Source: an uncultured Candidatus Saccharibacteria bacterium (GTDB lineage Bacteria; Patescibacteriota; Saccharimonadia; Saccharimonadales; JAGQNJ01). From it: a DNA stretch of 64,000 bases. Below the pieces are notes generated by a model. That model ran no database searches, was not told where the DNA came from, and saw only the letters and a program-made list of their open reading frames with translations. The stretch's first letter is position 1, and every line of letters begins with the position of its first letter. The DNA is taken from the NCBI GenBank assembly GCA_964491925.1, contig CAZBGZ010000001.1:701-64700 (forward strand). Direction: 5' to 3'. A program made the position numbers and the translations under genes. Positions 29,049 through 52,081 of the stretch are shown here, piece by piece.

Positions 29049-29390
29049 TTATTCTCGGATAATCTCTGATTTAAACCACTTTTCTTGGAAGTGCGTCGCA
29101 TTTCGTATCTCTTCATTGCTAAATTGTTTACCATCTTCGCAGACAATCAGTTTGTCGTCGTCATCATCGGTTCTGTGCAGGATAGCAATACAGCGACCAG
29201 AAAAGATTTCAAGTGCAGTTTCTTCACCAAGTACATATACATCTATTTCTGCACCGTCGGGAGCTTTAGTATTAGGAACAAAACCGTAGTTAATAGGATA
29301 CTCATTATCGAACTTTGGGTGGTTACAGCCAAGTGGCCTGTCAACTGTAACTTGAACTATCTTACCAAGGAAGGGTTTTGAATAATCCAT
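29049..29390 (-). CDS. short inorganic-pyrophosphatase-like protein (113 aa)
   Basis: YPINYGFVPNTKAPDGAEIDVYVLGE matches the family I PPase core (NYGFIP.T...DGDP.DVLV), but the protein is about two-thirds of the usual length. Confidence 0.55.
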   Translation of the reverse strand: MDYSKPFLGKIVQVTVDRPLGCNHPKFDNEYPINYGFVPNTKAPDGAEIDVYVLGEETALEIFSGRCIAILHRTDDDDDKLIVCEDGKQFSNEEIRNATHFQEKWFKSEIIRE

Positions 29391-29442: not shown

Positions 29443-29458
29443 TGGTTGGGGTGATAGG
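29443..29458 (-). repeat. displaced tRNA-Pro 3'-end fragment (att-like repeat marking the far edge of the island)
   Basis: TGGTTGGGGTGATAGG matches 40292-40307 (TGGTCGGGGTGATAGG) at 15 of 16 positions. It is followed on the minus strand by an AAGAC/GTCTT + T-run terminator at about 29405-29430. Confidence 0.7.
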
Positions 29459-29585
29459 GCAATGCACATCTGCGTCCATGCTCGAAGCAAGCTTCTGCGA
29501 GTGGTCTGGATGACCGCACCGACGACCTTCAATCTTTTTTGCAAACAAAAAATATTGGGTCGTAGAACCCGGTGCAATGACTCCA
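29459..29585. repeat. conserved non-coding element, copy C3
   Basis: Homologous to C2 (see 19349..19475). Hairpin GAAG-CAAG-CTTC at 29484-29495. Internal stems GCACCG/CGGTGC and ACGACC/GGTCGT flank a TTTTTTG-CAAA-CAAAAAA hairpin. Confidence 0.6.
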
Positions 29586-29592
29586 AAGAATT

Positions 29593-29622
29593 AAAAAAGA
29601 CTACCTGATGGTAGTCATTTTT
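29593..29622. terminator. bidirectional Rho-independent terminator
   Basis: AAAAAA-GACTACC-TGAT-GGTAGTC-ATTTTT. Confidence 0.6.
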
Positions 29623-29767
29623 AATTGGTCGGGAGTAGCAGATTTTACTCAAACCTTAAATATGATAATCCGCCAACGCCATAACCTCAGTATTATGGTA
29701 GAACGTCTGTCTGCTGTTAGCAAATATGACGACAAGAAATTATCGCTAGTCAGTCTATAATGTTAGT

Positions 29768-29974
29768 ATGGGTAACCTGTACGAATATACTGAGACAATG
29801 AAGTACGTCAGAGATATGGTTTTTCTGGAAGTTTTAGATGATACTGAGAAATCAAAGACCTGGGTTAAGGGACTAGACAAGTTCCCAAAAAATAAAAGTT
29901 TCATAGACGATAAGGCGTGGGGCGATTTTGGCGACGATAAGCCCTTGCTAAAGAAGAAAAGTACGAAGAAATAA
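29768..29974 (+). CDS. hypothetical protein (68 aa)
   Basis: Track ORF with a Lys-rich C-terminus. Confidence 0.35.
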   Translation: MGNLYEYTETMKYVRDMVFLEVLDDTEKSKTWVKGLDKFPKNKSFIDDKAWGDFGDDKPLLKKKSTKK

Positions 29975-30093
29975 CATAGCGTGTGTTAGCTCAAACCTGG
30001 TACTTGTAATAATACTTATGGTTAGTGCTTATGTTTGGTGCTAATATGTAGTGTGTGTTGGTAATTCAAGCTCCGCTTTGAATTACGCTATTT

Positions 30094-30131
30094 GCCCGTT
30101 ACTGACTTGCGTCAGTGCGGGCTATTTCTTT
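30094..30131 (+). terminator. hairpin terminator (GCCCG-ACTGAC / GTCAGT-CGGGC) followed by a T-rich tract
   Basis: Seen at 30094-30122, followed by TATTTCTTTG. Preceded by a second 9-bp hairpin at 30061-30086. Confidence 0.5.
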
Positions 30132-30361
30132 GTACGGTTGTAAGGCGACTGGTTGGTCGGCTTCAGGCTGATACCTAGCTCAGATGCTTTACTTTGCACA
30201 GCACCAGGTGAACGACCCAGCTTTAAGCCAGCGACACGTGTTGGCGTATTGCCTCGTGCCAGTTGGCGAAGTTGAGCTTCTTGCCCTGAAGTCCAGGCTT
30301 TGCCAGAATTGGCTGGTTTTCCCATTGGAACTCCGTAACTTGAGCCTCTGTATGTCGGCAC
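30122..30361 (-). CDS. hypothetical small protein with a possible Myb/SANT-like HTH (79 aa)
   Basis: WTSGQEAQLRQLARGNTPTRVAGLKLGRSPGAVQSKASELGISL. Confidence 0.35.
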   Translation of the reverse strand: MPTYRGSSYGVPMGKPANSGKAWTSGQEAQLRQLARGNTPTRVAGLKLGRSPGAVQSKASELGISLKPTNQSPYNRTKK

Positions 30362-30625
30362 GGTGGCTCATTGTTCCCACCACCTTCTTATGCGGAGCAA
30401 TAAAAAAGCAGCAGTACGTTTATCCCGTACCCTGCTCATTGGAAATTGTTGCTGTTCTAATGAAAAGGGTGCAGGCTAAGTGTCGCTTGTTTGCAATCCA
30501 CCCCCTTGCACCTCTGTTGTCTCTCTGAGACACCTCTATATTAGCACAAGCTCGTTATCTTATATGTAGTAGTTTTTACTCCGAATTGTACGCTAGATGT
30601 AGCGTTATGCTTATGCTTAACACCT

Positions 30626-31189
30626 TTAAGTGTAAAACTTGTTGTGAAAATCAAAAAACAGTGCAGCGATTAGCACTATGTAAGTGAAAAAACATAGGGC
30701 AATACAGGCAACTTGCACTTTTATTGCAGGTCGTGGGGGGTGTATGTCTAAATTGCTCTGTGCCACATCAATCTTCTTGATTAGCTCGTCCTCGGTTTTG
30801 TAATCTCTATTGTCTATGACTAATGTTACATCGTGATATGCATCAGCCCACTTTTTATATGAGCTTTCCATTTTAAAATAGTGAACAATCCCCGCAAAGA
30901 CAGCAATTACTTCAAGAATAAACGCAAAAAGGATAAGAAACTTTTGCCCCGAAGTAAGAGAATTAAGCAATCCTCCGCTACCAAGAGCGATAACATTCAC
31001 AGAAATTAGCACTGTAGTCAGGAGTATTAACTGACCAGAAAGTGAACGCTCTGTGGTGTTAGCTTCGCTAGCCGATTTGTCTCGTTGGATTTCAAACTTG
31101 TGTTTTTGTGCAGTGAGAAACTCTACAGTGGTTGGGTCGTTGAAATCGTATTTAACGGTGTTTTGGGTTTTTATTTTTTTAGCCGCCAT
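30626..31189 (-). CDS. hypothetical membrane protein (187 aa, ~3 TM)
   Basis: Soluble N-terminus, two central TM helices, and one C-terminal TM helix. No family recognised. Confidence 0.45.
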   Translation of the reverse strand: MAAKKIKTQNTVKYDFNDPTTVEFLTAQKHKFEIQRDKSASEANTTERSLSGQLILLTTVLISVNVIALGSGGLLNSLTSGQKFLILFAFILEVIAVFAGIVHYFKMESSYKKWADAYHDVTLVIDNRDYKTEDELIKKIDVAQSNLDIHPPRPAIKVQVACIALCFFTYIVLIAALFFDFHNKFYT

Positions 31190-31192
31190 AGT

Positions 31193-31399
31193 CTATTTGG
31201 TAGATTTTGGGGTAGATTTTGGAGGGTTTGAGGTTGGCTTGATACTGGAAACAGGGGGTTTGCCGTCAATACTAACTGGATAGCCTAAAGCTCTACCTTT
31301 AACTGGTCCACTTGTAGGCGGCTTTCGGTCTAGGCTCACAGGATAACCAGTGCCTTTTCTGATAGGCTGTGGTCTGTTGCTATTCGCACGCTCACTCAT
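31193..31399 (-). CDS. hypothetical Pro-rich protein with an internal repeat (68 aa)
   Basis: GYPVSLDRKPPTS and GYPVSIDGKPPVS are tandem-like repeats. There is a 3-nt gap to the downstream membrane protein gene. Confidence 0.35.
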   Translation of the reverse strand: MSERANSNRPQPIRKGTGYPVSLDRKPPTSGPVKGRALGYPVSIDGKPPVSSIKPTSNPPKSTPKSTK

Positions 31400-31419
31400 A
31401 TTATGATTTTATCACGAAA

Positions 31420-31611
31420 CTATAGGTCTTTTTTGTCTACGGCGTTCCCTGAGTTCCTTTTTTTGAACTCGCTTATAGCCATACCTGCCATAAAATCAAG
31501 GTCTGTGATAATTTTTATGACCTGTTCATCAGTGTACTTTTCAGCTTCCTTACCCATAAGCTTACGAGCCTCTTTGACGGATATAATCAGACCTTCGTCT
31601 TTATAAGTCAT
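31420..31611 (-). CDS. hypothetical protein (63 aa)
   Basis: Track ORF. First gene of the minus-strand cargo cassette. Confidence 0.35.
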   Translation of the reverse strand: MTYKDEGLIISVKEARKLMGKEAEKYTDEQVIKIITDLDFMAGMAISEFKKRNSGNAVDKKDL

Positions 31612-31669
31612 TTCTGTTCTCCTTCTCTTAATTGTTACACTATTATAGCTTTCTACCCCTGTTAATACG

Positions 31670-31678
31670 TGCTACAAT
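31670..31678 (+). promoter_or_regulatory. extended -10 promoter (TGcTACAAT)
   Basis: 31670-31678. The predicted start site falls at the foot of the 13-bp stem that begins at 31685. Confidence 0.45.
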
Positions 31679-31684
31679 ATAAGG

Positions 31685-31786
31685 GTCTAAACTCACATCA
31701 GAGAAACGCCTTTTCGGCGTAGTTGAACCATACAATGGGCAGCTACGTAAAAAAGCAATAGGTTCAACCCTGTTGTGAGTTTAGAC
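31685..31786 (+). promoter_or_regulatory. 102-nt structured leader / nested inverted-repeat element upstream of the glycine-zipper gene
   Basis: Perfect 13-bp stem GTCTAAACTCACA (31685-97) / TGTGAGTTTAGAC (31774-86). It encloses the hairpin ACGCC-TTTTC-GGCGT (31706-20) and the 8-bp stem GTTGAACC (31722-29) / GGTTCAAC (31761-68). Confidence 0.5.
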
Positions 31787-31842
31787 ACTAGCGTGGCTGT
31801 CCTTTTTATTTGGGAACGCCACAAATAAACAAGGAGGTTACT

Positions 31843-32247
31843 ATGCTAATTGGAGGTACGTTCTACGTTTTCTACAGTGGTGGACTAGATTTAATGCCAA
31901 GACCTGGCAAATACCAATTACGATTATCTAAAAGGCATATCAGTGTTGTACCTACATTCAGAGCACCTGATGCAAAGAAGTTTGAAATACCTGTGTCAAA
32001 TCTAAAAGGCGTTTCGCTTGATTATGAAATTACGGACAGACAATTATCTGCTGGAAAAGCTATTGTCGGTGGTGTTATCGCTGGTGGCGTTGGTGCAATA
32101 GCAGGTGCTTCTATGGGTGGCAAGAAAGCAACGCCATCTTTGGTTATTAGCTTTATTGACGAAACAGGTAGCGAAAAACTGTTGCCTTTGGAGGGAAATA
32201 AGTTAGATTCTGCTCATAATATGATGGTCAAGAAGTACGGGCTATAG
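31843..32247 (+). CDS. hypothetical protein with a PH/GRAM-like N-terminus and a glycine-zipper segment (134 aa)
   Basis: ATG at 31843 with AAGGAGG 5 nt upstream (the track starts at TTG 31810). Glycine-zipper segment: GKAIVGGVIAGGVGAIAGASMGG. Confidence 0.5.
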   Translation: MLIGGTFYVFYSGGLDLMPRPGKYQLRLSKRHISVVPTFRAPDAKKFEIPVSNLKGVSLDYEITDRQLSAGKAIVGGVIAGGVGAIAGASMGGKKATPSLVISFIDETGSEKLLPLEGNKLDSAHNMMVKKYGL

Positions 32248-32493
32248 TTCCTTCTGCTTCTTGTCTTTGTATATATCGTATATAAGATTAGCCAGTGCCT
32301 CGGCGTCCTCTTTCATAGCATCACGTCTTGCCAGTTCCTCTACTTGTTCCTTAGTTATCGGCTGATATACGGTTTTCATCTGCAACACCAGCATAGTGAG
32401 TTTGTGCCGAGCTGTCTGACTATCCAGCTCTTTGCCAAACTTTGACTTATAAAGTTTTTGGAAGTCTTTTACATCTTCGTCGGTAATGTCCAC
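32242..32493 (-). CDS. hypothetical helical protein (83 aa) immediately downstream of res
   Basis: Starts 1 nt after the res stop. No motif recognised. Confidence 0.4.
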   Translation of the reverse strand: MDITDEDVKDFQKLYKSKFGKELDSQTARHKLTMLVLQMKTVYQPITKEQVEELARRDAMKEDAEALANLIYDIYKDKKQKEL

Positions 32494-32494
32494 G

Positions 32495-34993
32495 CTATTT
32501 CGCCATTAGGTTGTTTAGTTGGTCTTTCCAGCTTTTTTGGTTAAGCATTTCAAAGTGGAAGTCCATATCAGCACTACCTAGGTCAAGTTCTTGCCAGCTT
32601 TTTTCTATTGCCTGCTCGTTACAAAGGTCAAAAACGCTTTTCTTGTATTCCGAGTCCTCGTTGCCAACTAATTGGTCGCCTTTAGACTCCAGTACATATA
32701 CTTTGTCGTAATCATCTCCCGACTTGTGGCTAGCTAAAAAGTCAGGGTATATTCTGCCTGGCTTCCAGCCCTGTATACGATAATCCTTTTTAGCTTCGTT
32801 TCTGTACCACCATAGGAGCTGGCTCTGGTCGTCCAAATACAAAGCGACAGCCTCCTCAAGCTCGTTTATGTCCTCGCTTGGCACGTAATTGAACAGACTT
32901 CGCTCCAGGTCGTCATCGTGATAGTTTCGTAATCTCTGCCTGCTCCTGACGGTTGCTTTGCTTCTAAGTGGCTTGTCGCTGAGTAGGTAAAACTTCATCT
33001 CGCCACTTTTTAGCATTTTCTTGAATACTGCCTCCGCCAATCTGTCCCGTTCGGCGAACAGAGTCTTTCTGAGGCTCTCTATGACAAATACGAGGTTACT
33101 CGCAACTACTTCTATACCATTAGCCTTAATAAGCGAGGTTATAGCCGCATTTGCAGTCTCGTAAGCAATCCAGGGGTTTGGCACGATGTCTACTATTTGT
33201 CTGGCTACATATTCGGTATCAACTTCCGATTCGTAGCTGAGTTCTTTTTCTTTTCTGGACAGTGGTTTGCCGTCTGCATCAAGCCCTACAGCTATCGTAA
33301 TATCATCTACGGTTCGGTTTTCCAGACTTAATTCGGATATAGCTGAGAGGTCGGCTTTGTCCCAGTCTATCTGGCTCAATATATCGGTACTGTAGCGTAC
33401 TTCTCGCCAATCCCGCCCGTCATTTACGGCAAAGAAGGGTAGGTACACTTTGCCTGCAAACTTTTTGAACTTGTCTTGGTACTCTATCGGCTTTTCGTCC
33501 AGGTAATCAGGGTTGGTTTCCTCGTTTGTATCTACGGCTATACGTCCTGCCAAGTCGCCAAGCCCCTCGCCCTCAAGGTTTTGTTTAATGCCTTTAACCA
33601 GTTTGGTCGTATCGTGCTGGAAACTGTACACGTAGCACTCGTCCAGCTCAGTTACACCTGTCTTTTTGGCGTATGGCTGCCTAAGTACACGTCCGATAAG
33701 CTGTGTCATTGCCGTTTCGGATTGTGATTTGGTCAAACTACATAGCACATAGGCGAATGGGCAGTCCCAACCTTCCTGTAACGCCTGTTTGGTTATGATA
33801 AACCGTATCGGACAACCTTGCTCAAGCAAGTCTATACCCTCAATGTCGTCTTTCTCGGTAGATTTTATGGCGATTTGTTCCTCTGGTACGCCCGCCTGTT
33901 TCATCAGGTATTCTTTAACGTCCTCTGCGTGGATATACACTCCGTCCCGTTGGTCTTTGCCTGTACGTTCCACCTGCACGAGCATTATCGGGCGTATGTA
34001 ATTATTGGTGTTCTGTTCGTATTCTTTGGCGATTTCCTGCAATTTGCCTAAATAGTTAGTAGCGTCGGCGACGGTTTCTTTCCAGCCTACGGTCGTTTTG
34101 TTGACCAGGTGCAGGTCTAGTTTAATCATCTGTTCGTCGTTCAGCTCTTTGCCTGTTATCTCTACCAGTTTATTGGCTGATTCTGGGGGAGTTGCGGACA
34201 GCTCCAGCAAGAATGACGGGTTAAAGCCTGCGATAGTGTCTCTTGCAGTTGGGCTGTACGCCTTATGACCTTCGTCAATGATGGTTATTGGTTTGAGTAA
34301 CCGAAGTACGTTACCAAGTGAAGTTTTAGGTAAGTTGCCCCACATATAGCCCTCCGCTCCAAAGGTATCAAGATTCGGTACTTGCTCCAGCAGGCGGGTT
34401 TGGAGCTTATAGGCGTCCTCGGCTGGGAAAAACTCGGTATAACCAGTGTTGTCTTTGAATACTTTTAGTGTTTCCTTGCTTTGTCTGGAAGCAGAAGGGA
34501 GCATCAGAAGCATCACGCATAGATTTTCGGCTACGTCATCAGGTGTAAAGCGGTCTAGTTTTTCAAGGATTAAGGTTTTACCACCACTGCTTACGTCTAG
34601 CACTTGTCTGTAAGGGTGTTGTCGGTCTCGCAGGTTATTGAGTGTCTGACGGTATATCTGGGTGGTTGGCACAATCCAAAGCACCATACCGTTCTGCTTA
34701 TTCAGATATACCTTGTTTATTAGGTCAATGCTGTGGCAAGCAAGCAGGGTTTTACCACCGCCTGTCGGTACTTTCAGGTACATATTTGGTACAGGTTCGC
34801 CGATACCGTTAAACGTCTTTTTGTAACTGTCTAGCCCTATTTCTTTCCAGGCTTTAGCAGGAAAATGTATGTCATTAGCAAGTTCAGCGTCTGCCTCTTT
34901 GACCCGTTCGTAGCGTTCTCGTTGTTCTACCAGGGCGGTAAGATAGCCCGATAGTGCTTGAGTTACCTTTTTTTGGTATTCTCTAAGCTCCAT
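32495..34993 (-). CDS. res: Type III restriction enzyme, Res subunit (SF2 helicase + PD-(D/E)xK nuclease)
   Basis: Motif I VPTGGGKTLLA, motif II IIDEGHKAY, and a C-terminal YPDFLA...VYVLESKGD nuclease motif. There is a 2-nt gap after mod. Confidence 0.85.
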   Translation of the reverse strand: MELREYQKKVTQALSGYLTALVEQRERYERVKEADAELANDIHFPAKAWKEIGLDSYKKTFNGIGEPVPNMYLKVPTGGGKTLLACHSIDLINKVYLNKQNGMVLWIVPTTQIYRQTLNNLRDRQHPYRQVLDVSSGGKTLILEKLDRFTPDDVAENLCVMLLMLPSASRQSKETLKVFKDNTGYTEFFPAEDAYKLQTRLLEQVPNLDTFGAEGYMWGNLPKTSLGNVLRLLKPITIIDEGHKAYSPTARDTIAGFNPSFLLELSATPPESANKLVEITGKELNDEQMIKLDLHLVNKTTVGWKETVADATNYLGKLQEIAKEYEQNTNNYIRPIMLVQVERTGKDQRDGVYIHAEDVKEYLMKQAGVPEEQIAIKSTEKDDIEGIDLLEQGCPIRFIITKQALQEGWDCPFAYVLCSLTKSQSETAMTQLIGRVLRQPYAKKTGVTELDECYVYSFQHDTTKLVKGIKQNLEGEGLGDLAGRIAVDTNEETNPDYLDEKPIEYQDKFKKFAGKVYLPFFAVNDGRDWREVRYSTDILSQIDWDKADLSAISELSLENRTVDDITIAVGLDADGKPLSRKEKELSYESEVDTEYVARQIVDIVPNPWIAYETANAAITSLIKANGIEVVASNLVFVIESLRKTLFAERDRLAEAVFKKMLKSGEMKFYLLSDKPLRSKATVRSRQRLRNYHDDDLERSLFNYVPSEDINELEEAVALYLDDQSQLLWWYRNEAKKDYRIQGWKPGRIYPDFLASHKSGDDYDKVYVLESKGDQLVGNEDSEYKKSVFDLCNEQAIEKSWQELDLGSADMDFHFEMLNQKSWKDQLNNLMAK

Positions 34994-34995
34994 CG

Positions 34996-36627
34996 TTACT
35001 TAACCTTATATATTTCAAAAGGTAGTTGGCAAAAATCTATTTTAAGCTCGTCCAGCTCGCCAGTCTCAACGTATTTGGTCGGTGCGAATACCAGTAGCGG
35101 GCGACTGCCAGCGTGTTCACGCAGTTCACGAGCCATATTCAGTGTTAAGGCTGTTTGTTTCAGGTATTCCAAATCTGGCTTGTAGAGCATATATACGTCA
35201 TAGTGGCTTGAACTCCCAACGAATTGCTTGGCTTCGTCCATTTTAGCCTCGTCAAACTCCTCGCCTGTTGCTGTGTAGTAAACATACCGTGCCAGCTCTA
35301 GGTAACTTGGGAGTTTTTTGCCTGTCAGTATTCCTTCGGTTTCTATGGGGTCGCCTAGGTCAAAGTAGCTGAATGAACCGCCAAGCCCCGCTTTAACAAG
35401 TTCGTTTTTCGCCGTTGGTACACCTTTTATTACACGGCGTACTCGTTCGGCAGTTATTGAATCTGCGTGGTCTTCAAGCTCTACTAGCACAAACTTTCGT
35501 GTCCCACCATCTTCCTTGTTAAGCTCCAATAACGCCTGTGCTGTCGTGCCCGTACCTGCGAACGAGTCAAGAACTATTGCTTCTTTATCATCGTGGGTAG
35601 CATAATCTAGCAGGTATTTGAGTAGTTTGGAGGGCTTTGGGTTCTCAAAAATCCGTTCACCAAAAATAGCCTCCAACTCTTTATTGCCATCTTGAGTAAA
35701 ACCAACGACTTCTTGTTTTAAAACACTGCGAGCTTTTACCCGCCTACCGTCTCCGTTTTCGTTCACAAGGTAGGTTTTTGTATATATCTGCCATTCACCA
35801 CTAGGGTCTTTCTTGAACTCTATTTCGTTGTTTGATTTTCTTCTTTCAAACTCCTTTGGCGAAAGTCTCCAAGGTGTTGGCGATGCACTTTTCATTGTAC
35901 CGTCAGGGCATTTTATTTCGTAAATAAGGTTTGGTCGGTCAGTGGCTATACCTTTTTTATCAAGCCTGTCTAGGTAGTAACGACCACGCTCGTCTTCGTA
36001 GCGGAACATTTTCTCATAATCAGGTGGCGGGGTCACGAATAATTCAGGGAGTACTGACAAGTCCTTTGCATAGACCAAAATATGCTCGTGCTCCTTTACA
36101 AGGTGTGGGCTATCACCGCCTCCGCCGTGCTTGTTCTTCCAGATGAACTCTCCAACACTGTTTGTTTCACCGAAAATATCATCAAGGAGAATCCTTAGAC
36201 GGTGAGATTCGTTCTCGTCAATACTAACCAGAAATAACCCATCGCTTGTTAGTAATTCCTTTAAGAGCTTTAGACGAGGCATAAGCATACAAAGCCACTT
36301 ATCGTGACGTGTAAGGTCTTCGCCTTCTTTTCCAACAACTTCTCCCAACCATTCTTTTATTAGCGGGCTATTGACCTTGTCGTTATAACGCCAGCCCTCG
36401 TTTCCTGTGTTGTAAGGTGGGTCAATGTAAATACACTTGATTTTGCCTGCATAAGTGGGCAGCAAGGCTTTTAGGGCTAATAGATTGTCGCCGTGAATAA
36501 TAAGGTTGTCGTGCAGACTGACTTTATCTGCTAGGCTTTTGTCTTTTTGCGGCACGAGTTGGTGGTATGGTACTGCAAGGTGATGGTTCTGGACGAAGGA
36601 TTTTCCTTTGAATTGTAAAAATGGCAT
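34996..36627 (-). CDS. mod: Type III restriction-modification methyltransferase, Mod subunit (beta-class N6A/N4C)
   Basis: IYIDPPYNTGN (motif IV) precedes DSFAGTGTTAQA (motif I). Confidence 0.85.
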   Translation of the reverse strand: MPFLQFKGKSFVQNHHLAVPYHQLVPQKDKSLADKVSLHDNLIIHGDNLLALKALLPTYAGKIKCIYIDPPYNTGNEGWRYNDKVNSPLIKEWLGEVVGKEGEDLTRHDKWLCMLMPRLKLLKELLTSDGLFLVSIDENESHRLRILLDDIFGETNSVGEFIWKNKHGGGGDSPHLVKEHEHILVYAKDLSVLPELFVTPPPDYEKMFRYEDERGRYYLDRLDKKGIATDRPNLIYEIKCPDGTMKSASPTPWRLSPKEFERRKSNNEIEFKKDPSGEWQIYTKTYLVNENGDGRRVKARSVLKQEVVGFTQDGNKELEAIFGERIFENPKPSKLLKYLLDYATHDDKEAIVLDSFAGTGTTAQALLELNKEDGGTRKFVLVELEDHADSITAERVRRVIKGVPTAKNELVKAGLGGSFSYFDLGDPIETEGILTGKKLPSYLELARYVYYTATGEEFDEAKMDEAKQFVGSSSHYDVYMLYKPDLEYLKQTALTLNMARELREHAGSRPLLVFAPTKYVETGELDELKIDFCQLPFEIYKVK

Positions 36628-36734
36628 AGCACTATTTTGTCACACTTTGACAGAGTTTGTTAGGGGTAATTACATAAAATGACAGATTGGGAGCGAATGG
36701 GTATTGACTGGTAGCTAATTTTATTGCACTTTAT

Positions 36735-36763
36735 TTGATTTAACAGAGGTCATTTGCTATAAT
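36735..36763 (+). promoter_or_regulatory. strong sigma70-like promoter TTGATT-N17-TATAAT
   Basis: -35 element at 36735-40 and -10 element at 36758-63. Drives the RarA_C-like / integrase pair. Confidence 0.55.
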
Positions 36764-36800
36764 TATACATACAAACCTTAACAATTTGGGGGCAAAAATT

Positions 36801-37427
36801 ATGGCAAAAGATGCTAAATCTGGCAATGCAAAATCATCGTATCGTGGAGGGTACGAGCTAAGGCTGATTGGAGACTACAGCTTTGACGAGGCAACCTCCG
36901 CAATGCAGAAGATGATTCGCCGTAATAAGGAGTACGAGGCTTGCTGGTGGGCTTACATACTCCACGACAGTGGCTACTACAAATATGTCTGGCGTAGGTT
37001 GATGATAATCGCTTCGGAAGATGTAGGTAACGGTAATCATATGGCAGCCGTTATAGTTAATGCCCTCAGACAGAATTACGAAGCCACTATAGATAGTAAA
37101 ACCCGTCTTGGTGGCAACGGTTCCTTGTTTATCTTTCAAGCAGTTATGTACCTGTGTTCGTCCGAAAAGCTACGAGAAGTAGACACCCTTGCTAACCTGA
37201 TAATCAAGGAGTTCAAGGACGGTAAACGCCTAGAAGTACCAGAAGTCGCCATTGACCCCCATACAGCCCAGGGCAAGAAAATACACGGTCGTTGGGAGCA
37301 AGGCACGGATGAGGAGAAAACGGAGAGATACAAGAAATGGTATGAGGTATGGTCTTATGTAACTCCTGCCTCAAAACAACCAGATAAGTACCTAGATAAG
37401 TGGAAAAGGTTGGAGGGTAAGACGTGA
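36801..37427 (+). CDS. RarA/MgsA C-terminal-domain-only protein (no AAA+ module)
   Basis: SFDEATSAMQKMIRRN..ACWWAYIL....YVWRRLMIIASEDVGNGN aligns with the E. coli RarA region HYDVISAFHKSVRGS..ALYWYARII...YVARRCLAIASEDVGNADP (recalled from memory). No Walker motifs are present. ATG at 36801 is preferred over TTG 36786. Confidence 0.6.
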   Translation: MAKDAKSGNAKSSYRGGYELRLIGDYSFDEATSAMQKMIRRNKEYEACWWAYILHDSGYYKYVWRRLMIIASEDVGNGNHMAAVIVNALRQNYEATIDSKTRLGGNGSLFIFQAVMYLCSSEKLREVDTLANLIIKEFKDGKRLEVPEVAIDPHTAQGKKIHGRWEQGTDEEKTERYKKWYEVWSYVTPASKQPDKYLDKWKRLEGKT

Positions 37428-38317
37428 GAAGTCTTGAGGCACATATAGTTTTCAAGGACTATGGAGCAGTCTTTGATAATTTAGATGTAGCTGAAAGCAC
37501 CAGAGCAGATTATTGCTACCGTTTGCCATTATTCGTAGATTTCGTGAACACCCACGCCTTTACGTCAAATACGTACTTGGACTATAAAAAGTATCTACGA
37601 ACAATGCCGTGGTCTGTTTCTACCAAAAACAAGCACCTTATAGTAGCAAGGGTTTTTCTGAAAGAACTGCACCGCCAGGGTTTACTGCCAACTGACATCA
37701 CACATAACGTCAAGGCTTTTAAGCAAAGCAAGAAACACAAGAAACGTGGCTTGAATGACATTGAGGTTAAGAAGCTTACTGCTTGGCTCTCCAATCTGCC
37801 AGACGAGCCTGAAAACGACAGATTAAAAGCACTTTTCAGTCTGCTGTTATTGCAAGGTTTGCGTTTAGTGGAGATATACAGACTAGATGTTGAGGACTTT
37901 GACCCTTATAACGATAGGATGTTCGTATGGGGTAAAGGCAGAGACGATAAAGAATCAGTACCATTATTGCCTCAGTCTGTTGCCTGCCTACGACAGTATC
38001 TACGGAGCAATAACATAAGAGAGGGTGCGTTATTCAGGAGCAACAGCAACAGTCAAATGGGCAAAAGATTATCTACTCGTGGGCTTCGTGAGATTATTTC
38101 AGTAATATTCCATATGCTACACATCAACAAGACTGCTCACGGTACACGCCATTTTTATACCAGCCAGCTACTAAAGCAGATGCCAGGAGAACTACTAGAC
38201 GTGGCACAATTCACACGACATCGCAGTATAGAGATGCTTCGTGAATACGATAACCGAAATAAGCAGGACTTCGCATTAGAAAAAGTAATATCTGCATTTG
38301 CGGGTATAAGTTTTTAA
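37424..38317 (+). CDS. tyrosine recombinase / phage-type integrase
   Basis: LQGLRLVEI (Arg), AHGTRHFYTS (HxxR) and RHRSIEMLREY (His...Tyr). The GTG start overlaps the upstream stop by 4 nt. Confidence 0.8.
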   Translation: MRSLEAHIVFKDYGAVFDNLDVAESTRADYCYRLPLFVDFVNTHAFTSNTYLDYKKYLRTMPWSVSTKNKHLIVARVFLKELHRQGLLPTDITHNVKAFKQSKKHKKRGLNDIEVKKLTAWLSNLPDEPENDRLKALFSLLLLQGLRLVEIYRLDVEDFDPYNDRMFVWGKGRDDKESVPLLPQSVACLRQYLRSNNIREGALFRSNSNSQMGKRLSTRGLREIISVIFHMLHINKTAHGTRHFYTSQLLKQMPGELLDVAQFTRHRSIEMLREYDNRNKQDFALEKVISAFAGISF

Positions 38318-38321
38318 GTAA

Positions 38322-38527
38322 TAAGCTAACTTGCCCCAACAATTACCTAACATTCGGGCTAAATAAGTTTGGAAGTGGTCTAAATTACGACACAAAATGT
38401 TAGGCAAATAACAGGCAATTCATAGGATTTAAGCTAACGTAACACCCCTCAAAGCCAAATAGTCTAGGGAATTGGCAGGAAATTGCTAGGAAACGAGCTA
38501 AATAAAACACCCCTTTACTGCCAATAA
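38322..38527. repeat. cluster of short direct repeats in the ORF-free spacer between the two recombinase genes
   Basis: TAAGCTAAC x2 (38322, 38430); GCTAAATAA x2 (38358, 38497); AACACCCCT..(A)..GCCAA.TA x2 (38441, 38506). Confidence 0.5.
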
Positions 38528-38617
38528 CACTAATTACAAGCACTAACTTTACACCTTAAAAATGTATCTACTATTTGAACCCTAGCAAACTATAATAAAC
38601 ATATGGAGACATTTTAG

Positions 38618-40303
38618 TTGGACAACAACCCTCTTGACCTATTTAAGCTGGTACAAAACCAGTTAGAGCCTAGCATACCTAAACCTGTAGTACCGTCTGA
38701 ACTTAGATACGCAATCTATGCACGTAAATCAACCGAGAGCGAGGAGCGGCAGGTACGCTCCATACCAGACCAAATTAGTGATTGTATGGAGCTTGTTGTT
38801 GAACCAAACAATATAGTTATTAACCAAAAAACTGATATTTACAAAGAGGAAAAATCCGCCAAGGAAGCGGGTACAAGACCTGTATTCCGTGAGCTAATGA
38901 AAAAAATAATTGACGGTAAGTATGATGGCATAATTTCGTGGCACTACGACCGCCTGGCTCGCAATATGAAAGAGGCTGGCGAGATAATTGAGCTTATAGA
39001 TAACGGTCAAATTAAAGACTTAAAGTTGGCTAAAGCCACGTTTGAAAACACACCAAACGGGAAGATGATACTTGGCATTAGTTTTGTGCTGTCAAAACAC
39101 TACTCAGACCATCTCAGCGAGTCTGTAACACGAGGCAACAAGAGCAGTACCGAGAAAGGCAGAGTTCTCAGTAAGTTTGTCCACGGCTATATTATTGCCG
39201 ACGATAAGCGTCTGATAGCTGATGACCGAAACTACCTAATTATTGAGCACGCTTTTCGTATGCGGTTAGACGGTAAATCACAGAAAGAAATAGCAGAGTA
39301 TATAAACAAGAGTGGCTATCAGGTGCACCGCTCTACTGTTGGTCATAGGATACGTACTTTTGACGAAGATATGGTATCTAAGCTCTTAAAAGAGCCTATA
39401 TACGCTGGCATATGGGTCTATGGTAAGACTGCTGTGAAGATGGCTGACGTTGACCCGAACTTTACACCTATGCTTACGGAGGAGGAGTTCTTTGCAATCA
39501 ACGGTAGAAAGTTCCAGCTATCTTATATCAAGAGTGCTGCTGCCCGTGTTGCGTCCAATGACAGGTCTAATTTCCTACGTCAGTTTGTAATCTGCGGGCA
39601 CTGTAAACGCAATCTTGGGACTAGTGTTACGTCAAAGTTTATAAAGTTATCTGGTAGATCTGGTAAGTCGGTACAGTACTACTTCCGCTTTAAGTGTAAT
39701 AACAAGGTCTGTGTAGCCTTTGGTAGTGGACCTAAGGGTTCGCTTATCAAGGATTACGTAACCGATTTCTTACAAAACCACTTATTTACAACCAAGAGCA
39801 ATTACAAACGCTACTTGGAGGACGCAGAGACGTTTTTGCAGGAGAGAAAGGCAGAGCTTACGTCTGCCAATAAAAGCTTTACCGTTCTGCTTAGCAAGAA
39901 ACGCCGTGAATACGATGACGCTAAAGCCATAGCAGCCGACACCGAAAATCCACTAGCTGTGCACTACACGCCAAAACACCTAGATAAGCTGAAAAAGGAA
40001 GTTGACGATTATAACAAGCAGGTGTTGGAGATTCGGCAAGAACTGGAAGACCAAAACACTGCTTTGGTGTCATATGACGAGTTTCTCAAACTTTACGAAA
40101 ATGCCGCCGAATTACTTCGGTCAACTTACGGAATGGCAATGGCTGACGAACTGATACGGATTTTCTTCTCAAACCTTACTGTTGTAAGTAAGCCGTATGG
40201 CAAAAAAATGACACAAAAACAGTGGTCAATAGTAGACCACTGCCTTAACGAGCCATTTGACGATTTCGTCAAAAACGGCGATTTTCTTACTTGGTCGGGG
40301 TGA
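38618..40303 (+). CDS. large serine recombinase (resolvase domain + recombinase domain + zinc ribbon + coiled coil)
   Basis: YAIYARKSTESEERQVRSIPDQ (catalytic Ser region), DRLARN, and CGHCKRNLG...CNNKVC. The last 12 nt overlap the tRNA-Pro 3' end. Confidence 0.85.
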   Translation: MDNNPLDLFKLVQNQLEPSIPKPVVPSELRYAIYARKSTESEERQVRSIPDQISDCMELVVEPNNIVINQKTDIYKEEKSAKEAGTRPVFRELMKKIIDGKYDGIISWHYDRLARNMKEAGEIIELIDNGQIKDLKLAKATFENTPNGKMILGISFVLSKHYSDHLSESVTRGNKSSTEKGRVLSKFVHGYIIADDKRLIADDRNYLIIEHAFRMRLDGKSQKEIAEYINKSGYQVHRSTVGHRIRTFDEDMVSKLLKEPIYAGIWVYGKTAVKMADVDPNFTPMLTEEEFFAINGRKFQLSYIKSAAARVASNDRSNFLRQFVICGHCKRNLGTSVTSKFIKLSGRSGKSVQYYFRFKCNNKVCVAFGSGPKGSLIKDYVTDFLQNHLFTTKSNYKRYLEDAETFLQERKAELTSANKSFTVLLSKKRREYDDAKAIAADTENPLAVHYTPKHLDKLKKEVDDYNKQVLEIRQELEDQNTALVSYDEFLKLYENAAELLRSTYGMAMADELIRIFFSNLTVVSKPYGKKMTQKQWSIVDHCLNEPFDDFVKNGDFLTWSG

Positions 40304-40368
40304 TAGGACTCGAACCTACGACCTCCGCGTCCCAAACGCGGCGCGCTAGCCAACTGCGCCACACCCCG
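40292..40368 (-). tRNA. tRNA-Pro (anticodon UGG), CCA encoded
   Basis: Acceptor CGGGGTG/CACCCCG, D arm GCGC-AGTTGGCTA-GCGC, anticodon arm CCGCG-TTTGGGA-CGCGG, T arm GTAGG-TTCGAGT-CCTAT. Confidence 0.92.
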
Positions 40369-40456
40369 ACGTCGCAGTGCGACGTCAACCTCCGTCATAC
40401 CAAAATAAATAAAACATTTCTTTTGCTAGACTGCAGTTTGTGTCGACTGCTCCTTA

Positions 40457-41166: not shown

Positions 41167-42063
41167 ATGGTCAAAAAAACTAAAAACAAAAAAACTAAAC
41201 AAAATCCTAAGTTTCTAAAGGCGTTATTACTGGCTGGGATTATTATTTTAATTGGGACAATCCTTTCTCTCATGCTATCTGTAAAAAAGAAAAGCAGCGA
41301 AGCTGAGTCTAGAAAGACATACTCGGTTCACATTGTCGCAGGGCAATCAAATGCCGTTGGTTTGGGCAGCAATCCTGCCAGTTTCCCGTCAGATTCGACA
41401 AATAAAAAAATCAAATTTTATTATGCTCATGACACTAATTCGGGTGGGAAAATTGTAAATCTCAAAAACCAACGAATGCCAATCAGTAAAAGCAAATCAG
41501 GTTTTGGACCAGAAGTGGGCCTATCAAGAGAATTATTTAAAAATGGTTATAAAAATATTTTAATAATAAAAATTGCTAAAAGCGGTACATCTATGCAAAA
41601 AAGTTGGAACCCAAAAACAGGCACCCTGTATAATCAATACATTAAAAAAGAGACTGCAAAAGCTTTAGCCAAACTAGAAAAACAAGGTTATAAATATTCT
41701 GTCGATGGTTTCTACTGGATGCAAGGCGAATCTGATATGACTGCCGCAGCTGCACCGTCATATAAAAACAATCTGAAACTATTTATAGCGGCTGTTCGAA
41801 AAAACACCAAAAACCCAAGACTTAAGTTTGTAATCGGGAGACCAAATAACCCTAAATCGCCGGCAAAATACAGAGCAATGGTCAGGAGCGCTCAGCTGAG
41901 TGTATCGCATTCCGTCCCCAATGTTTCACTTGTCAATACTGACGACCTAAAACTAGCTGACTTTGTACACTACAATAGTGAAAGCCAAATCAAACTAGGA
42001 AAAAGATTCTTCCAAAAGATAAAACCATACATGGCCAAGAAATATCCTAACGGCCTAAAATAG
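41167..42063 (+). CDS. SASA/DUF303-type carbohydrate O-acetylesterase-like protein, membrane anchored (paralog 1)
   Basis: HIVAGQSNAVGLGS and YWMQGESD. N-terminal Lys-rich region plus a TM anchor. Confidence 0.6.
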   Translation: MVKKTKNKKTKQNPKFLKALLLAGIIILIGTILSLMLSVKKKSSEAESRKTYSVHIVAGQSNAVGLGSNPASFPSDSTNKKIKFYYAHDTNSGGKIVNLKNQRMPISKSKSGFGPEVGLSRELFKNGYKNILIIKIAKSGTSMQKSWNPKTGTLYNQYIKKETAKALAKLEKQGYKYSVDGFYWMQGESDMTAAAAPSYKNNLKLFIAAVRKNTKNPRLKFVIGRPNNPKSPAKYRAMVRSAQLSVSHSVPNVSLVNTDDLKLADFVHYNSESQIKLGKRFFQKIKPYMAKKYPNGLK

Positions 42064-42175
42064 ACCCGTCCGTCGAACTTTACAGCACACAATTGTTAAA
42101 ACAATATGTTTGATTGTATCTATTGCAACGGTTTATATCAAATGGTAATATATCACCAAAGTAAAAAATAAAAAT

Positions 42176-43069
42176 ATGTCACAAAATAAACAACTGAATA
42201 AAAATGGTTTCGCAATAATTGAACTTTTTGTAATTTGTTTGATTATTTTTACAATCATCGGTTTTGGAATATTTATTATAAAAAGGTCAGGCAATAATAA
42301 CTCTGTCAGCGAAGCCGAATCCAAACCTGATGTTTACAGTGTTCATATTATTGCAGGTCAATCTAATGCGGTAGGCGGCGGTACCTCCGAAAGAGACCTC
42401 CAGGAATCGAGCGTGGACCAAAAAGTCAAATTTTATTATCAGCATCAATCTAGCTCTGATGGTAAAATCGTTAACTTAAAAGCACAAAAAATAACTAGTA
42501 AGCAAACGGGGTTCGGCCCCGAAATTGGCCTAGCTCGAGATCTTTACGCCAATGGTTACAAGAAAATTCTTATAATTAAAGTGGCCTATGGGGCAACCGA
42601 CCTACACAATCAGTGGAAGGCACCAAATGGACCACTGTATACAAAATATATTCGTGGAACCGTCCCCAGAGCACTTCGCGAACTCAAAAAGCAAGGTCAC
42701 GATTACTCAATCGACGGATTTTACTGGGTTCAAGGTGAAGCAGACATGTATTGGGGGAACGGTAGATACTATAAAAACGATATGATCAACTTTATATCGC
42801 AGGTCAGAAAAGACCTTAACAAGCCAAATCTAAAAATTATTATTGCCCGCACAAATATGCCTGAAGCAAAACCTAGTGAGCGTAAACTAGTCAGGGATGC
42901 TCAGGTTAAAGTAGCCAATACTACCCCTAATGTAAGGTGGGTTAACACAGATGATCTACCGCTCTCAGATAACTTGCACTACAGCTCCAGGGGGCAAGTT
43001 ATACTCGGCCAACGCTTCTTTGAAAAGATAAAAACTCACATGAACAAACACTACCCGCAGGGGCTGTAG
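42176..43069 (+). CDS. SASA/DUF303-type O-acetylesterase-like protein with a prepilin-type signal (paralog 2)
   Basis: HIIAGQSNAVGGGT and YWVQGEADM. N-terminal NKNG|FAIIELFVICLII, with G at -1 and E at +5. Confidence 0.6.
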   Translation: MSQNKQLNKNGFAIIELFVICLIIFTIIGFGIFIIKRSGNNNSVSEAESKPDVYSVHIIAGQSNAVGGGTSERDLQESSVDQKVKFYYQHQSSSDGKIVNLKAQKITSKQTGFGPEIGLARDLYANGYKKILIIKVAYGATDLHNQWKAPNGPLYTKYIRGTVPRALRELKKQGHDYSIDGFYWVQGEADMYWGNGRYYKNDMINFISQVRKDLNKPNLKIIIARTNMPEAKPSERKLVRDAQVKVANTTPNVRWVNTDDLPLSDNLHYSSRGQVILGQRFFEKIKTHMNKHYPQGL

Positions 43070-50303: not shown

Positions 50304-51341
50304 CTACACCTCTTTTGTGACGGCTTCGCGGATTTTTTTGGCTAGTTCTTCCATGACTTTGGGGTTTTCTTCTAGGTATTTCTTAGTAGCTTCCCGACCC
50401 TGGCCAATTTTCTCGTCTTTGTAGGCAAACCATGCCCCGGACTTCTCGACTACTTCCTTATCGACTGCGAGGTCTAGGATATCACCGGATCTACTAATTC
50501 CTTTGTTATACATAATGTCGAATTCTGCAATGCGGAATGGTGGTGCAATCTTGTTTTTTACAACTTTTACTTTCGTTCGGTTTCCGATTATTTCTTCGCC
50601 CTGTTTTATTTGACTAATCCTACGAATATCCATGCGCACACTGGCGTAGAACTTTAGAGCGTTACCTCCAGTAGTAGTTTCGGGGTTGCCAAACATGACG
50701 CCAATCTTCATGCGAATCTGGTTAATGAAGATTATTGTGGTGTTGGAGCGATTGATAATCCCTGTTAGTTTCCGTAGAGCCTGACTCATTAGACGGGCCT
50801 GGAGTCCCATGTGACTATCGCCCATGTCGCCTTCAATTTCCGCCCTCGGCACAAGCGCGGCAACAGAATCCACAACGATAATATCAACAGCGTTAGATCG
50901 CACTAGTGTTTCAGTAATCTCAAGGGCCTGTTCGCCATTATCGGGCTGAGAAACCAATAGGTTTTCTACTTTAACGCCTAGTTTTTTCGCATAAGCTGGG
51001 TCCAAAGCATGCTCGGCATCAACAAAGGCGGCTGTACCACCGGTTTTCTGGACCTCGGCGATAGCATGAAGCGCCAGCGTAGTCTTACCAGAAGATTCTG
51101 GACCGTAAATCTCTATAATTCGTCCTTTTGGCAGCCCACCACCAAGGGCAAGATCTAGCGAAATACTACCACTAGGGATACATTCAACATCGGCATTCGT
51201 GCCTTCGCCTAATTTCATAATAGAGCCCTTGCCGAATTGTTTCTCAATCTGATCCAGTGCCAACCCCAATGCCTTACTCTTGCCTGTTGCCTCTGCTGGT
51301 TCTGCTAGTTTTTTTTCTGTTGTTTTCTTATCTTTAGCCAT
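50304..51341 (-). CDS. recA: recombinase RecA
   Basis: [23 protein letters not shown] and [33 protein letters not shown]. Confidence 0.97.
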
Positions 51342-51427: not shown

Positions 51428-52081
51428 TTGATATTAATGAAGCTGCTTATGCTAAAACCGGAACGATTTACCCCGTTAGAAGTAAGGAATACATACAATA
51501 AAACGAGTTTACATCAATCTCTAAAGGGATTTACATTAATCGAAATCCTTATTGTTGTAATAGTCCTAGGCACACTCGCCGCAATAGGTTATGGTACTCT
51601 GGCCCAAAAATGGAAAAATAAGGCCTATTACACACGTGGAATAGCAGAGCTCAACGCAATGGGTAACGCTGCAAATCTGTACGTTGCAAAATACAACGAC
51701 TACCCTGCTGACGTTTCTAGAAATATTCCCTCAGACCTAAAAGAGTTTGTTCAGGGTCAAGAAAATATAGATGCATGGCCTGCTGCACCATGGCCAGGTA
51801 GCGTATATGATTATGACAACTGGCCACCAGATGCTAATGGTCCAAATCAGACTTATCAAATTAGTGTCAGAATGTGCAACCCCGGTGACACAGCCACTTG
51901 TAATAAAAATGCAAAAAAATATTTGTCCGAATACGTATCAACAGCCACCCTCAATGCTTGGGACTCTAATAGTGCCGTGTATTACTGCATCAAGGGGTCC
52001 TGTCGATCACATCAGTCCATGCCAATGAACCACCCAGGATATTGCATCAATTGTGGTACGAGTAAAACCAAAGTGTTTTAG
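51428..52081 (+). CDS. type IV pilin-like protein
   Basis: LKG|FTLIEILIVVIVLGTLAAIGY prepilin motif. The true start may be the ATG at 51449. Confidence 0.7.
   Translation: MILMKLLMLKPERFTPLEVRNTYNKTSLHQSLKGFTLIEILIVVIVLGTLAAIGYGTLAQKWKNKAYYTRGIAELNAMGNAANLYVAKYNDYPADVSRNIPSDLKEFVQGQENIDAWPAAPWPGSVYDYDNWPPDANGPNQTYQISVRMCNPGDTATCNKNAKKYLSEYVSTATLNAWDSNSAVYYCIKGSCRSHQSMPMNHPGYCINCGTSKTKVF

Follow-up and report, generated by a model that had tools for sequence, protein, structure and literature searches.

The question raised by this locus is whether a group of small genes lying beside a Type III restriction-modification (RM) system forms a defense module or is something else. The genes occupy positions 30122 to 32493 of a 64,000-nucleotide (nt) stretch of Candidatus Saccharibacteria DNA (the window; all coordinates are positions within it, and L numbers denote loci on related contigs) and encode proteins of 79, 187, 68, 63, 134, and 83 amino acids (aa). 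A previous examination of the DNA letters, which we call the sequence-only reading, had placed all six open reading frames (ORFs) correctly. It proposed that a minus-strand cassette of the 63-, 68-, and 187-aa genes and a divergently transcribed 134-aa glycine-zipper gene are defense cargo. Saccharibacteria and other members of the candidate phyla radiation (CPR) have tiny genomes rich in unannotated genes, and we know of almost no characterized defense biology in the Saccharibacteria phylum. Based on comparisons with related contigs, we favor, with moderate confidence, the reading that the region would be a mosaic, assembled from cargo modules that are independent of one another in a tRNA-Pro-associated Saccharibacteria island, and not one defense system.

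The closest syntenic contig, L016, shares a backbone of ~75% nt identity with the window, and this backbone is interrupted at sharp points (30620/30621, 31765/31766, 32492/32493, and 36734/36735, as determined against L016 and L018). Positions 29613 to 30620, with a 68-aa ORF, the gene for the 79-aa protein, and a spacer, are homologous in L016. Positions 30621 to 31765 (minus strand), which hold the 187-, 68-, and 63-aa genes and which we call Slot B, are replaced in L016 by 448 nt with a 100-aa Trypco2-like gene, and the homology with L016 and L017 breaks exactly at the two ends of this segment. Homology resumes from 31766 to 32492, a segment with a leader, the 134-aa gene, and the 83-aa gene. 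It is interrupted again from 32493 to 36734 (Slot A), where the window carries its Type III RM system and L016 carries a different one (26 to 30% aa identity by tblastn). Positions 36735 to 40369, with an MgsA_C-like ATPase gene, two recombinase genes, and tRNA-Pro, are once more homologous.

The cargo of Slot A is a bona fide Type III RM system (32495 to 36627, minus strand), with res at 32495 to 34993 and mod at 34996 to 36627. It matches REase_III (E = 1.8e-184) and MTase_III (E = 6e-153), and both res and mod match PADLOC models strongly. In L018 the same slot holds a Type II methyltransferase/restriction endonuclease pair. In L020 the homolog of the 134-aa gene is followed directly by DISARM genes (DrmE; DrmA, 2.5e-230; and DrmB, 7e-78) and a NERD helicase gene. 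Across the window and its relatives, Slot A thus contains four different defense systems, each beside the 134-aa gene, and the Type III RM neighbor and variable, island-like setting described in the sequence-only reading are borne out. The 100-aa gene found in Slot B of the relatives (L016, 1660 to 1962; L017, 423 to 725; L018, 9452 to 9754) resembles Trypco2 with a score of 22.2 bits, below the cut-off of 24.2. Trypco2 is a domain of conflict systems, and therefore Slot B may also gather conflict-related genes.

The right-hand end of the backbone contains the recombination genes (36786 to 40368, plus strand): the MgsA_C-like ATPase gene, a tyrosine recombinase gene (37424 to 38317), and a large serine recombinase gene (38618 to 40303), next to tRNA-Pro (40292 to 40368, minus strand), the right boundary. 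Integrase genes thus adjoin a tRNA gene at one edge, as in tRNA-associated islands. The proteins of this end are 77 to 89% identical in aa sequence to those of L016 and L018, and L016 keeps a tRNA-Pro of identical type at the same end; L020 has a different serine recombinase gene, abutting tRNA-Lys. On the left, positions 29443 to 29477 repeat the tRNA-Pro 3' part in direct orientation but in degenerate form (no strand assigned), a candidate remnant of the left attachment (att) site. Its local alignment with 40292 to 40332 scores 35, compared with a mean of 18.8 (standard deviation, 2.9; maximum, 29) in 300 shuffles; it was also detected as repeat D9 (15/16 nt), and L016 has a comparable remnant. 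Since the repeat is degenerate, we count it as moderate evidence for an island. Based on the L016 breakpoints, the recombinases, tRNA-Pro, and its degenerate copy, we read positions 29443 to 40368 as a ~10.9-kb, tRNA-Pro-linked, putatively mobile integrative island with two independent cargo slots. Defense-cargo hotspots such as P4-like satellites and tRNA-linked islands are likewise built of a conserved backbone with a variable defense slot, recombinases, and a tRNA at the edge. The present island differs from them in its CPR/Saccharibacteria host, in a second small slot that holds either a Trypco2-like gene or the three-gene cassette, in carrying a tyrosine recombinase together with a large serine recombinase, and in its mobility, which is putative.

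Within the Slot B cassette, the conserved partners are the 68-aa and 187-aa genes only. The 63-aa ORF (31420 to 31611, minus strand) has a TATAAT box (31642 to 31647) and an AAGGAG Shine-Dalgarno (SD) sequence of its own, has no homolog in any fetched locus, and forms a singleton cluster; it is an orphan passenger of the cassette. The three-gene cassette of the sequence-only reading therefore holds as one replaceable unit (30621 to 31765, by comparison with L016) and not as three conserved partners. When the 63-aa ORF was compared with the 100-aa gene that occupies Slot B in the relatives, the two were unrelated.

The 68-aa gene (31193 to 31399, minus strand) encodes a Pro-rich micropeptide with the motif PI[RK]KG[TV]x[YF]P[VA]x[LIV][DN]xxPP, which is duplicated in the window as the tandem GYPVSLDRKPP/GYPVSIDGKPP. 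In 9 of 9 distinct loci, the 187-family gene is directly preceded by such an ORF. Eight of these include members that are just ~40% identical to the window 187-aa protein, and the ninth (L027, whose 187-family member is ~22% identical) has a 54-aa ORF with a looser motif. Over the 18 motif codons, synonymous differences exceed nonsynonymous differences in the closer pairs (11 versus 4, 12 versus 4, and 9 versus 3), which indicates translation of the micropeptide and purifying selection on it; nonsynonymous differences are the more numerous when the two divergent sequence groups are compared with each other. Conservation ends at the PP, and the tail beyond it varies from 2 to ~35 residues. In our reading, the micropeptide and 187-aa genes are an old two-gene unit that is the core of the swappable Slot B cassette.

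No SD sequence precedes the 187-family gene in any of the nine loci, and the distance from the peptide stop to the 187-family start is between -17 and +11 nt in eight of nine (3 nt in the window, where the gap and the GYPVS repeat are as the sequence-only reading gave them). An extended -10 box, TGATAAAAT, is located at 31406 to 31414 (minus strand), 6 nt before the micropeptide ATG, and L006, L009, L010, and L015 have similar boxes 6 to 7 nt before the ATG of the peptide. Judging from these sequence features, a promoter so close to the start codon would produce a leaderless transcript that opens with the micropeptide ORF (AUG at 31399), and the SD-less 187-aa gene may be translated by termination-reinitiation 3 nt past the peptide stop. 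The peptide could then act as a stable subunit that binds the membrane protein at its cytoplasmic helices, or it could be a proline-stalling leader that meters synthesis of the membrane protein. The leader peptides of SecM-SecA, MifM-YidC2, and erm are likewise encoded by short upstream ORFs, which are coupled with membrane-related genes. As in arrest-peptide leaders, the conserved residues of the micropeptide finish at a proline motif, a variable tail follows, and a membrane-protein gene without initiation signals of its own lies immediately downstream. In contrast to such leaders, the micropeptide has no signal or transmembrane (TM) segment, and stop and start abut or overlap in place of an SD-masking hairpin.

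The 187-aa protein (30626 to 31189, minus strand) belongs to an unnamed family. It has three hydrophobic segments, centered near residues 62, 92, and 168, in agreement with the approximately three TM segments noted previously. Helices are predicted at residues 19 to 70, 80 to 127, and 154 to 178 (model pLDDT, 77), and 22 close homologs share an invariant TERSLSGQLILLTTVL at the start of the first TM segment (TM1). The family comprises 228 cluster representatives at E ≤ 1e-3, and the best 150 of these are mostly stand-alone proteins of ~160 to 220 aa; a profile search with a broad alignment added almost nothing. Two loci were found in a scan of species-representative genomes, both from Candidatus Saccharibacteria/Saccharimonadales, and the genes that flank the loci on related contigs are characteristic of this group as well. 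Longer family members do not contain the peptide motif as an N-terminal fusion. One member, P0020 of L007, ends in a C-terminal tail (...KPFVIKPTGYPR) that is faintly like the micropeptide motif (KKGTGYP); it also has an upstream peptide ORF, and the likeness is possibly a coincidence.

The sequence-only reading stated that none of the proteins matched a nameable family. For the cassette proteins this stands, as Pfam, NCBIfam, and PADLOC give no significant match. The 187-aa protein in particular has no consistent Pfam or NCBIfam match, no PDB sequence match, and no PDB fold match by Foldseek, and its family has no relative in viral collections and no match in cultured phages. The proposal of a defense system gained nothing from PADLOC-DB v2, in which the six cassette-region proteins and three left-hand neighbors had zero hits at E ≤ 1. 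Matches to Claudin_2/MARVEL, 8xMP, and DUF2721 were below threshold and inconsistent, and a literature search on 8xMP found nothing relevant. We considered an identity with SLATT effectors such as HalA of Hailong, which are also small membrane proteins in which a TM hairpin precedes a helical region in the cytoplasm. However, the matches are weak (HalA, E = 0.021, 14 versus 250 bits; SLATT_1, E = 0.12, 12.3 versus 41 bits), and only 1 of 108 family members matches each SLATT model at E < 0.01, which is noise level. A PDB profile search and Foldseek against PDB, both without a match, further led us to reject this identity. The 187-aa protein also differs from SLATT effectors in its third TM segment and in having no nucleotide-synthesizing partner gene in any neighborhood; SMODS, SLOG, or HalB-type partner domains were found in none of nine distinct 187-family neighborhoods.

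The genomic contexts of the micropeptide/187-aa pair are diverse. Close homologs of the 187-aa protein (56 to 72% identity), in L009 and L006, are encoded directly downstream of RM systems, as is the window protein. Genes for ~40%-identical homologs lie between the pilB operon and NYN/recA, between genes for UPF0259 and glutamate dehydrogenase (GDH), and beside a gene for an Rce1-like protease; one distant context is that of histidyl-tRNA synthetase (HisRS) and GDH among housekeeping genes. The 22%-identical homolog of L027 lies between PnuC and DUF2130/T2SSE. Because the distant copies are among housekeeping genes, the contexts are better explained by a lineage-specific membrane function that reached a variable slot in the window than by an RM accessory. 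In the window, recA (50304 to 51341) and pilB (52137 to 53954) are near-neighbors without the pair between them, the gap holding only a 217-aa ORF (51428 to 52081); in L011 the interval from pilB to recA contains the pair, an NYN gene, and three small ORFs. This comparison indicates that the pair occupies different sites in different lineages, and between those of the window and L011 it has moved or been lost and regained. Positions 9674 to 9814 of L009 encode a 46-aa fragment with homology to the central part of the 83-aa protein; it is located between a block of Type III RM, HARE-HTH, and DUF2779 genes and the micropeptide ORF. The order RM, 83-aa-like, peptide, 187-aa, regulator is thus common to the window and L009, with the 134-aa gene missing in L009.

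The same contexts bear on whether the pair could be a toxin-antitoxin (TA)-like or abortive module, in which a labile upstream peptide neutralizes a membrane-depolarizing three-TM protein. This would agree with an arrangement like that of type II TA operons, in which a small first gene abuts or overlaps the second (here with a distance of -17 to +11 nt in 8 of 9 loci), with the differing genomic positions across lineages, with the invariant TM1, and with the proximity of RM genes, which directly precede the pair in the window, L006, and L009 and lie within 4 to 10 kb of it in L027. However, the gene is single copy in each locus (including the window) and has been kept across 22 to 40% identity in tiny genomes, often amid core genes; neither protein is similar to a toxin or antitoxin family or has a phage or viral-contig match; and the peptide lacks a DNA-binding domain with which it could autoregulate. 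We therefore consider a TA-like pair unlikely and prefer a lineage-specific membrane function for it.

On the other side of Slot B, the 134-aa gene (31843 to 32247, plus strand) begins with ATG at 31843 (a start at TTG 31810 would give 145 aa), preceded by the AAGGAGG SD sequence already noted by the sequence-only reading (31831 to 31837). The AlphaFold model is a PH/PTB-type beta-sandwich of seven strands with a C-terminal helix, and the top 50 Foldseek matches in PDB are all PH/PTB domains (best E, 3e-4). The glycine zipper forms a low-confidence insert at residues 65 to 95, and its G/A pattern is invariant in 15 aligned family sequences. A PH-like domain and a glycine zipper are thus both present, as had been proposed, but the PH domain is not N-terminal to the zipper; it is split by it. 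A precomputed annotation assigns the 134-aa protein, as well as four homologs (P0024, P0032, P0035, and P0038), to PF27000 (PH_gly_zipper), and the 134-aa protein shows the PH-like fold with a glycine-zipper segment that is expected of this family; these assignments are marked weak or faint. Our Pfam scan gave no significant match for the 134-aa protein, with a copy of Pfam that was without the PF27000 model. One protein thought to be unnameable thus has a family name and no function. To our knowledge, PF27000 is without a known function, and we know of no family description that includes the conserved leader RNA described below or the 83-aa partner. We propose that the zipper loop may serve as the membrane attachment of the PH_gly_zipper protein.

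The 83-aa helical protein is encoded on the minus strand (32242 to 32493) by a gene that converges on the 134-aa gene and shares 6 nt with it. This overlap is repeated in L016 and L018, where the 83-aa protein is 81% and 77% identical, respectively, and in L020 a 51% homolog lies 2 kb away. In contrast, the 134-aa and 187-aa genes occur together only in the window, and no other distinct locus of either family has both. The idea that these two divergent genes form a two-part system is therefore not supported and loses its chief argument. A "134-aa" ORF beside the 187-family homolog of L010 is unrelated to the window protein. Together with its leader RNA, the PH_gly_zipper gene and its 83-aa partner would form a backbone unit that marks the upstream edge of a defense-insertion hotspot.

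In metagenomes, a scan with the 134-aa family recovered L024 as its sole full-length locus, along with two partial matches. Among PHROGs, several families of unknown function match the zipper region; viral collections give partial matches to this region only, and the family has no match in cultured phages. Literature on the glycine zipper with PH and on Saccharibacteria RM islands provided general background only. A prophage-like contig of 55 kb (L021) encodes a 149-aa PH_gly_zipper homolog (57% identity) among early genes, just upstream of ERF and YqaJ recombination genes, with amidase, HNH, and CHAP genes elsewhere in the locus.

Between Slot B and the 134-aa gene is a promoter with a structured 5' leader RNA (31670 to 31842, plus strand). 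In the window, the promoter TGCTACAAT (31670 to 31678) is followed by helix P1 (31685 to 31697 paired with 31774 to 31786), an inner hairpin, P2, and the conserved loop AAUGGGCA. A second hairpin (GUGGC, 31794 to 31798; GCCAC, 31818 to 31822) has a U-rich loop (CCUUUUU, 31801 to 31807) that is complementary to the SD sequence. A leader of ~160 nt with this single layout is found upstream of 134-family genes in five distinct loci (the window, L016/L017, L018/L019, L020, and L024): an extended -10 box (TGnTAnnAT), ~7 nt, a ~100-nt domain closed by a helix of 13 to 16 bp, an inner hairpin, the invariant AAUGGGCA, and a second hairpin, GUGGY...RCCAC, with an SD-complementary U-rich loop. Standard pairs make up 96% of the cells of the leader alignment, compared with ~30% when the partners are slid. 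Seven of 21 pairs are altered on both sides, and none of 500 shuffles reaches the covariation score. The G-U pairs are consistent with a plus-strand transcript, the minimum free energy of the window leader has a z score of -6.8, and anti-SD pairing (CCUU/AAGG) is possible in all five leaders, at -5.8 to -8.2 kcal/mol. The interior is compatible with two folds, a three-way junction and a long hairpin, and has compensatory changes for both.

Based on these features, the leader may control the 134-aa gene posttranscriptionally, through SD sequestration or through a terminator-like hairpin. It resembles riboswitch-like leaders in its promoter, covarying domain, second hairpin, and fixed position upstream of one gene family; it differs from them in having no match in Rfam 15, a closing helix of 13 to 16 bp, and an ambiguous inner fold. 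A closing helix of this length makes a classical small-molecule riboswitch less likely, and dependence on a protein or an RNase is equally possible. A covariance model of the leader found no other copies in about 570 kb of sequence, and 28 exact 15-mer leader matches in viral contigs are all due to chance.

A PH_gly_zipper protein under such a leader could be an RNA-gated membrane effector of mobile elements, acting in superinfection exclusion or abortive infection and silenced by the leader until a signal frees the SD sequence. The gene lies beside Type III RM, Type II RM, or DISARM genes in four island variants, a homolog is found among the early genes of a prophage-like contig, several families of phage proteins match the zipper region, and the leader is a conserved structure with possible SD sequestration. 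However, the adjacency is equally explained by a backbone gene that flanks an insertion hotspot, the prophage-like homolog of L021 is without the leader RNA, no PADLOC model matches the protein, and the family is not matched in cultured phages. We give this possibility a small chance of being correct. We are just as doubtful of a broader and more speculative version, in which the PH_gly_zipper protein would be a leader-RNA-gated island effector that senses an infection or stress signal and travels with the hotspot, and the micropeptide/three-TM unit would be a nascent-chain-gated membrane module. If true, both would be new regulatory-effector designs.

An alternative explanation for the inverted repeat upstream of the 134-aa gene is that it acts as DNA, either as a recombination site for cassette exchange or as a single-strand promoter or origin. 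It is at the edge of the swappable Slot B, its long and near-perfect closing stem is atypical for riboswitch aptamers, and the ends of its arms (GTCTAAAC and GTTTAGAC) may be loosely like integron attC core sites. However, each locus contains a single copy, and the other slot boundaries have none; the repeat is preceded at 7 nt by a conserved extended -10 box and followed by a loop complementary to the SD sequence; the G-U pairs fit a plus-strand transcript; and no relaxase or integron-type integrase was identified. We therefore judge a DNA-level element to be rather improbable and continue to treat the repeat as a leader RNA.

The idea that the 63-, 68-, and 187-aa cassette and the divergent glycine-zipper protein are one abortive-infection or toxin-type module, with or beside the Type III RM system and with the membrane proteins as effectors, is very improbable, since, although the island adjoins a defense hotspot, small multi-TM and glycine-zipper proteins act as effectors in known systems, and the 187-aa protein has weak HalA/SLATT matches, the two families are never together elsewhere, the 63-aa ORF is an orphan, PADLOC has no match, the SLATT signal is 1 in 108 with no fold match, and distant 187-family genes are in housekeeping contexts. 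None of our tests favors the membrane proteins as effectors, although such a role is conceivable, and the abortive-infection reading of the cassette region is unsupported.

Several observations weigh against the mosaic-island reading or parts of it. The att repeat is short as well as degenerate, and the GC content of the island is not distinguishable from that of its surroundings. Three of the four close 187-family genes (those of the window, L009, and L006) are directly downstream of RM systems, of three kinds, so that a functional link with RM may exist. The P1 helix of 13 to 16 bp is unusually stable for a ligand-switched helix, and the terminator-like hairpin is good in one sequence type only. 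The numbers are also small, as the micropeptide sample consists of nine distinct 187-family loci and the leader sample of five.

On the mosaic-island reading, the region would add three new objects: a coupled micropeptide/membrane-protein family, a structured leader RNA outside Rfam, and an anchor-plus-hotspot organization of a CPR island. The micropeptide/three-TM unit is conserved across the lineage and has an unusual predicted mode of translation; its motif and the leader RNA are candidates for new family definitions. The anchor gene and its leader could be used to locate defense hotspots in CPR metagenomes. The contexts described above also indicate that RM adjacency alone is insufficient for calling small membrane proteins defense effectors.

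The left-hand part of the backbone contains a small helix-turn-helix (HTH) protein, listed as 79 aa (30122 to 30361, minus strand). The sequence-only reading called it HTH-like, which agrees with its match to phrog_323, "transcriptional regulator, D5-like" (E = 5.2e-9). Its true start is probably the ATG at 30325, giving 67 aa, because a GGAG SD sequence is located there and the homologs are 67 to 68 aa long. Regulator homologs follow the 187-family gene in L006 (62%) and L009 (90%), and L016 has one (65%) without a 187-aa gene. Based on these matches, we take the protein to be a phage-type regulator belonging to the backbone. A 68-aa ORF farther to the left (29768 to 29974, plus strand), inside the backbone homology that starts at 29613, is weakly conserved in L016 (36% over 50 aa).

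Between the 187-aa and regulator genes is a second conserved noncoding block (30413 to 30545, minus strand), in which a promoter-like TGCTAATAT is followed by ~125 nt and then by a GUACG/CGUAC hairpin with a run of U residues. The block is almost invariant in the window, L016/L017, and L009 and is recognizable in L006, and its conservation exceeds that of the flanking genes. It has no match in Rfam and may be either a small RNA or an attenuator-type leader that precedes the regulator gene.

At the left edge of the island, a second, shorter tRNA-Pro-like remnant (TTGGTCGGG...ACTCAAACC; 29625 to 29656 in the window and 661 to 681 in L016) coincides with the start of the L016 backbone homology (29613). 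Two consecutive remnants could reflect successive integrations at this tRNA. Just beyond this edge is a 113-aa inorganic-pyrophosphatase-like ORF (29049 to 29390), whose match to the Pfam Pyrophosphatase model is confined to the middle of that model (32 to 112 of 153) and which is shorter than the full-length NCBIfam models that it matches; it is possibly a truncated gene. To the right of the island, two tandem paralogs of the SASA (sialic-acid-specific acetylesterase) family lie at 41167 to 43069, between a His_Phos gene and the gene for RNase Y. These paralogs are missing from the syntenic contig L016, which makes this a third variable spot of the region.

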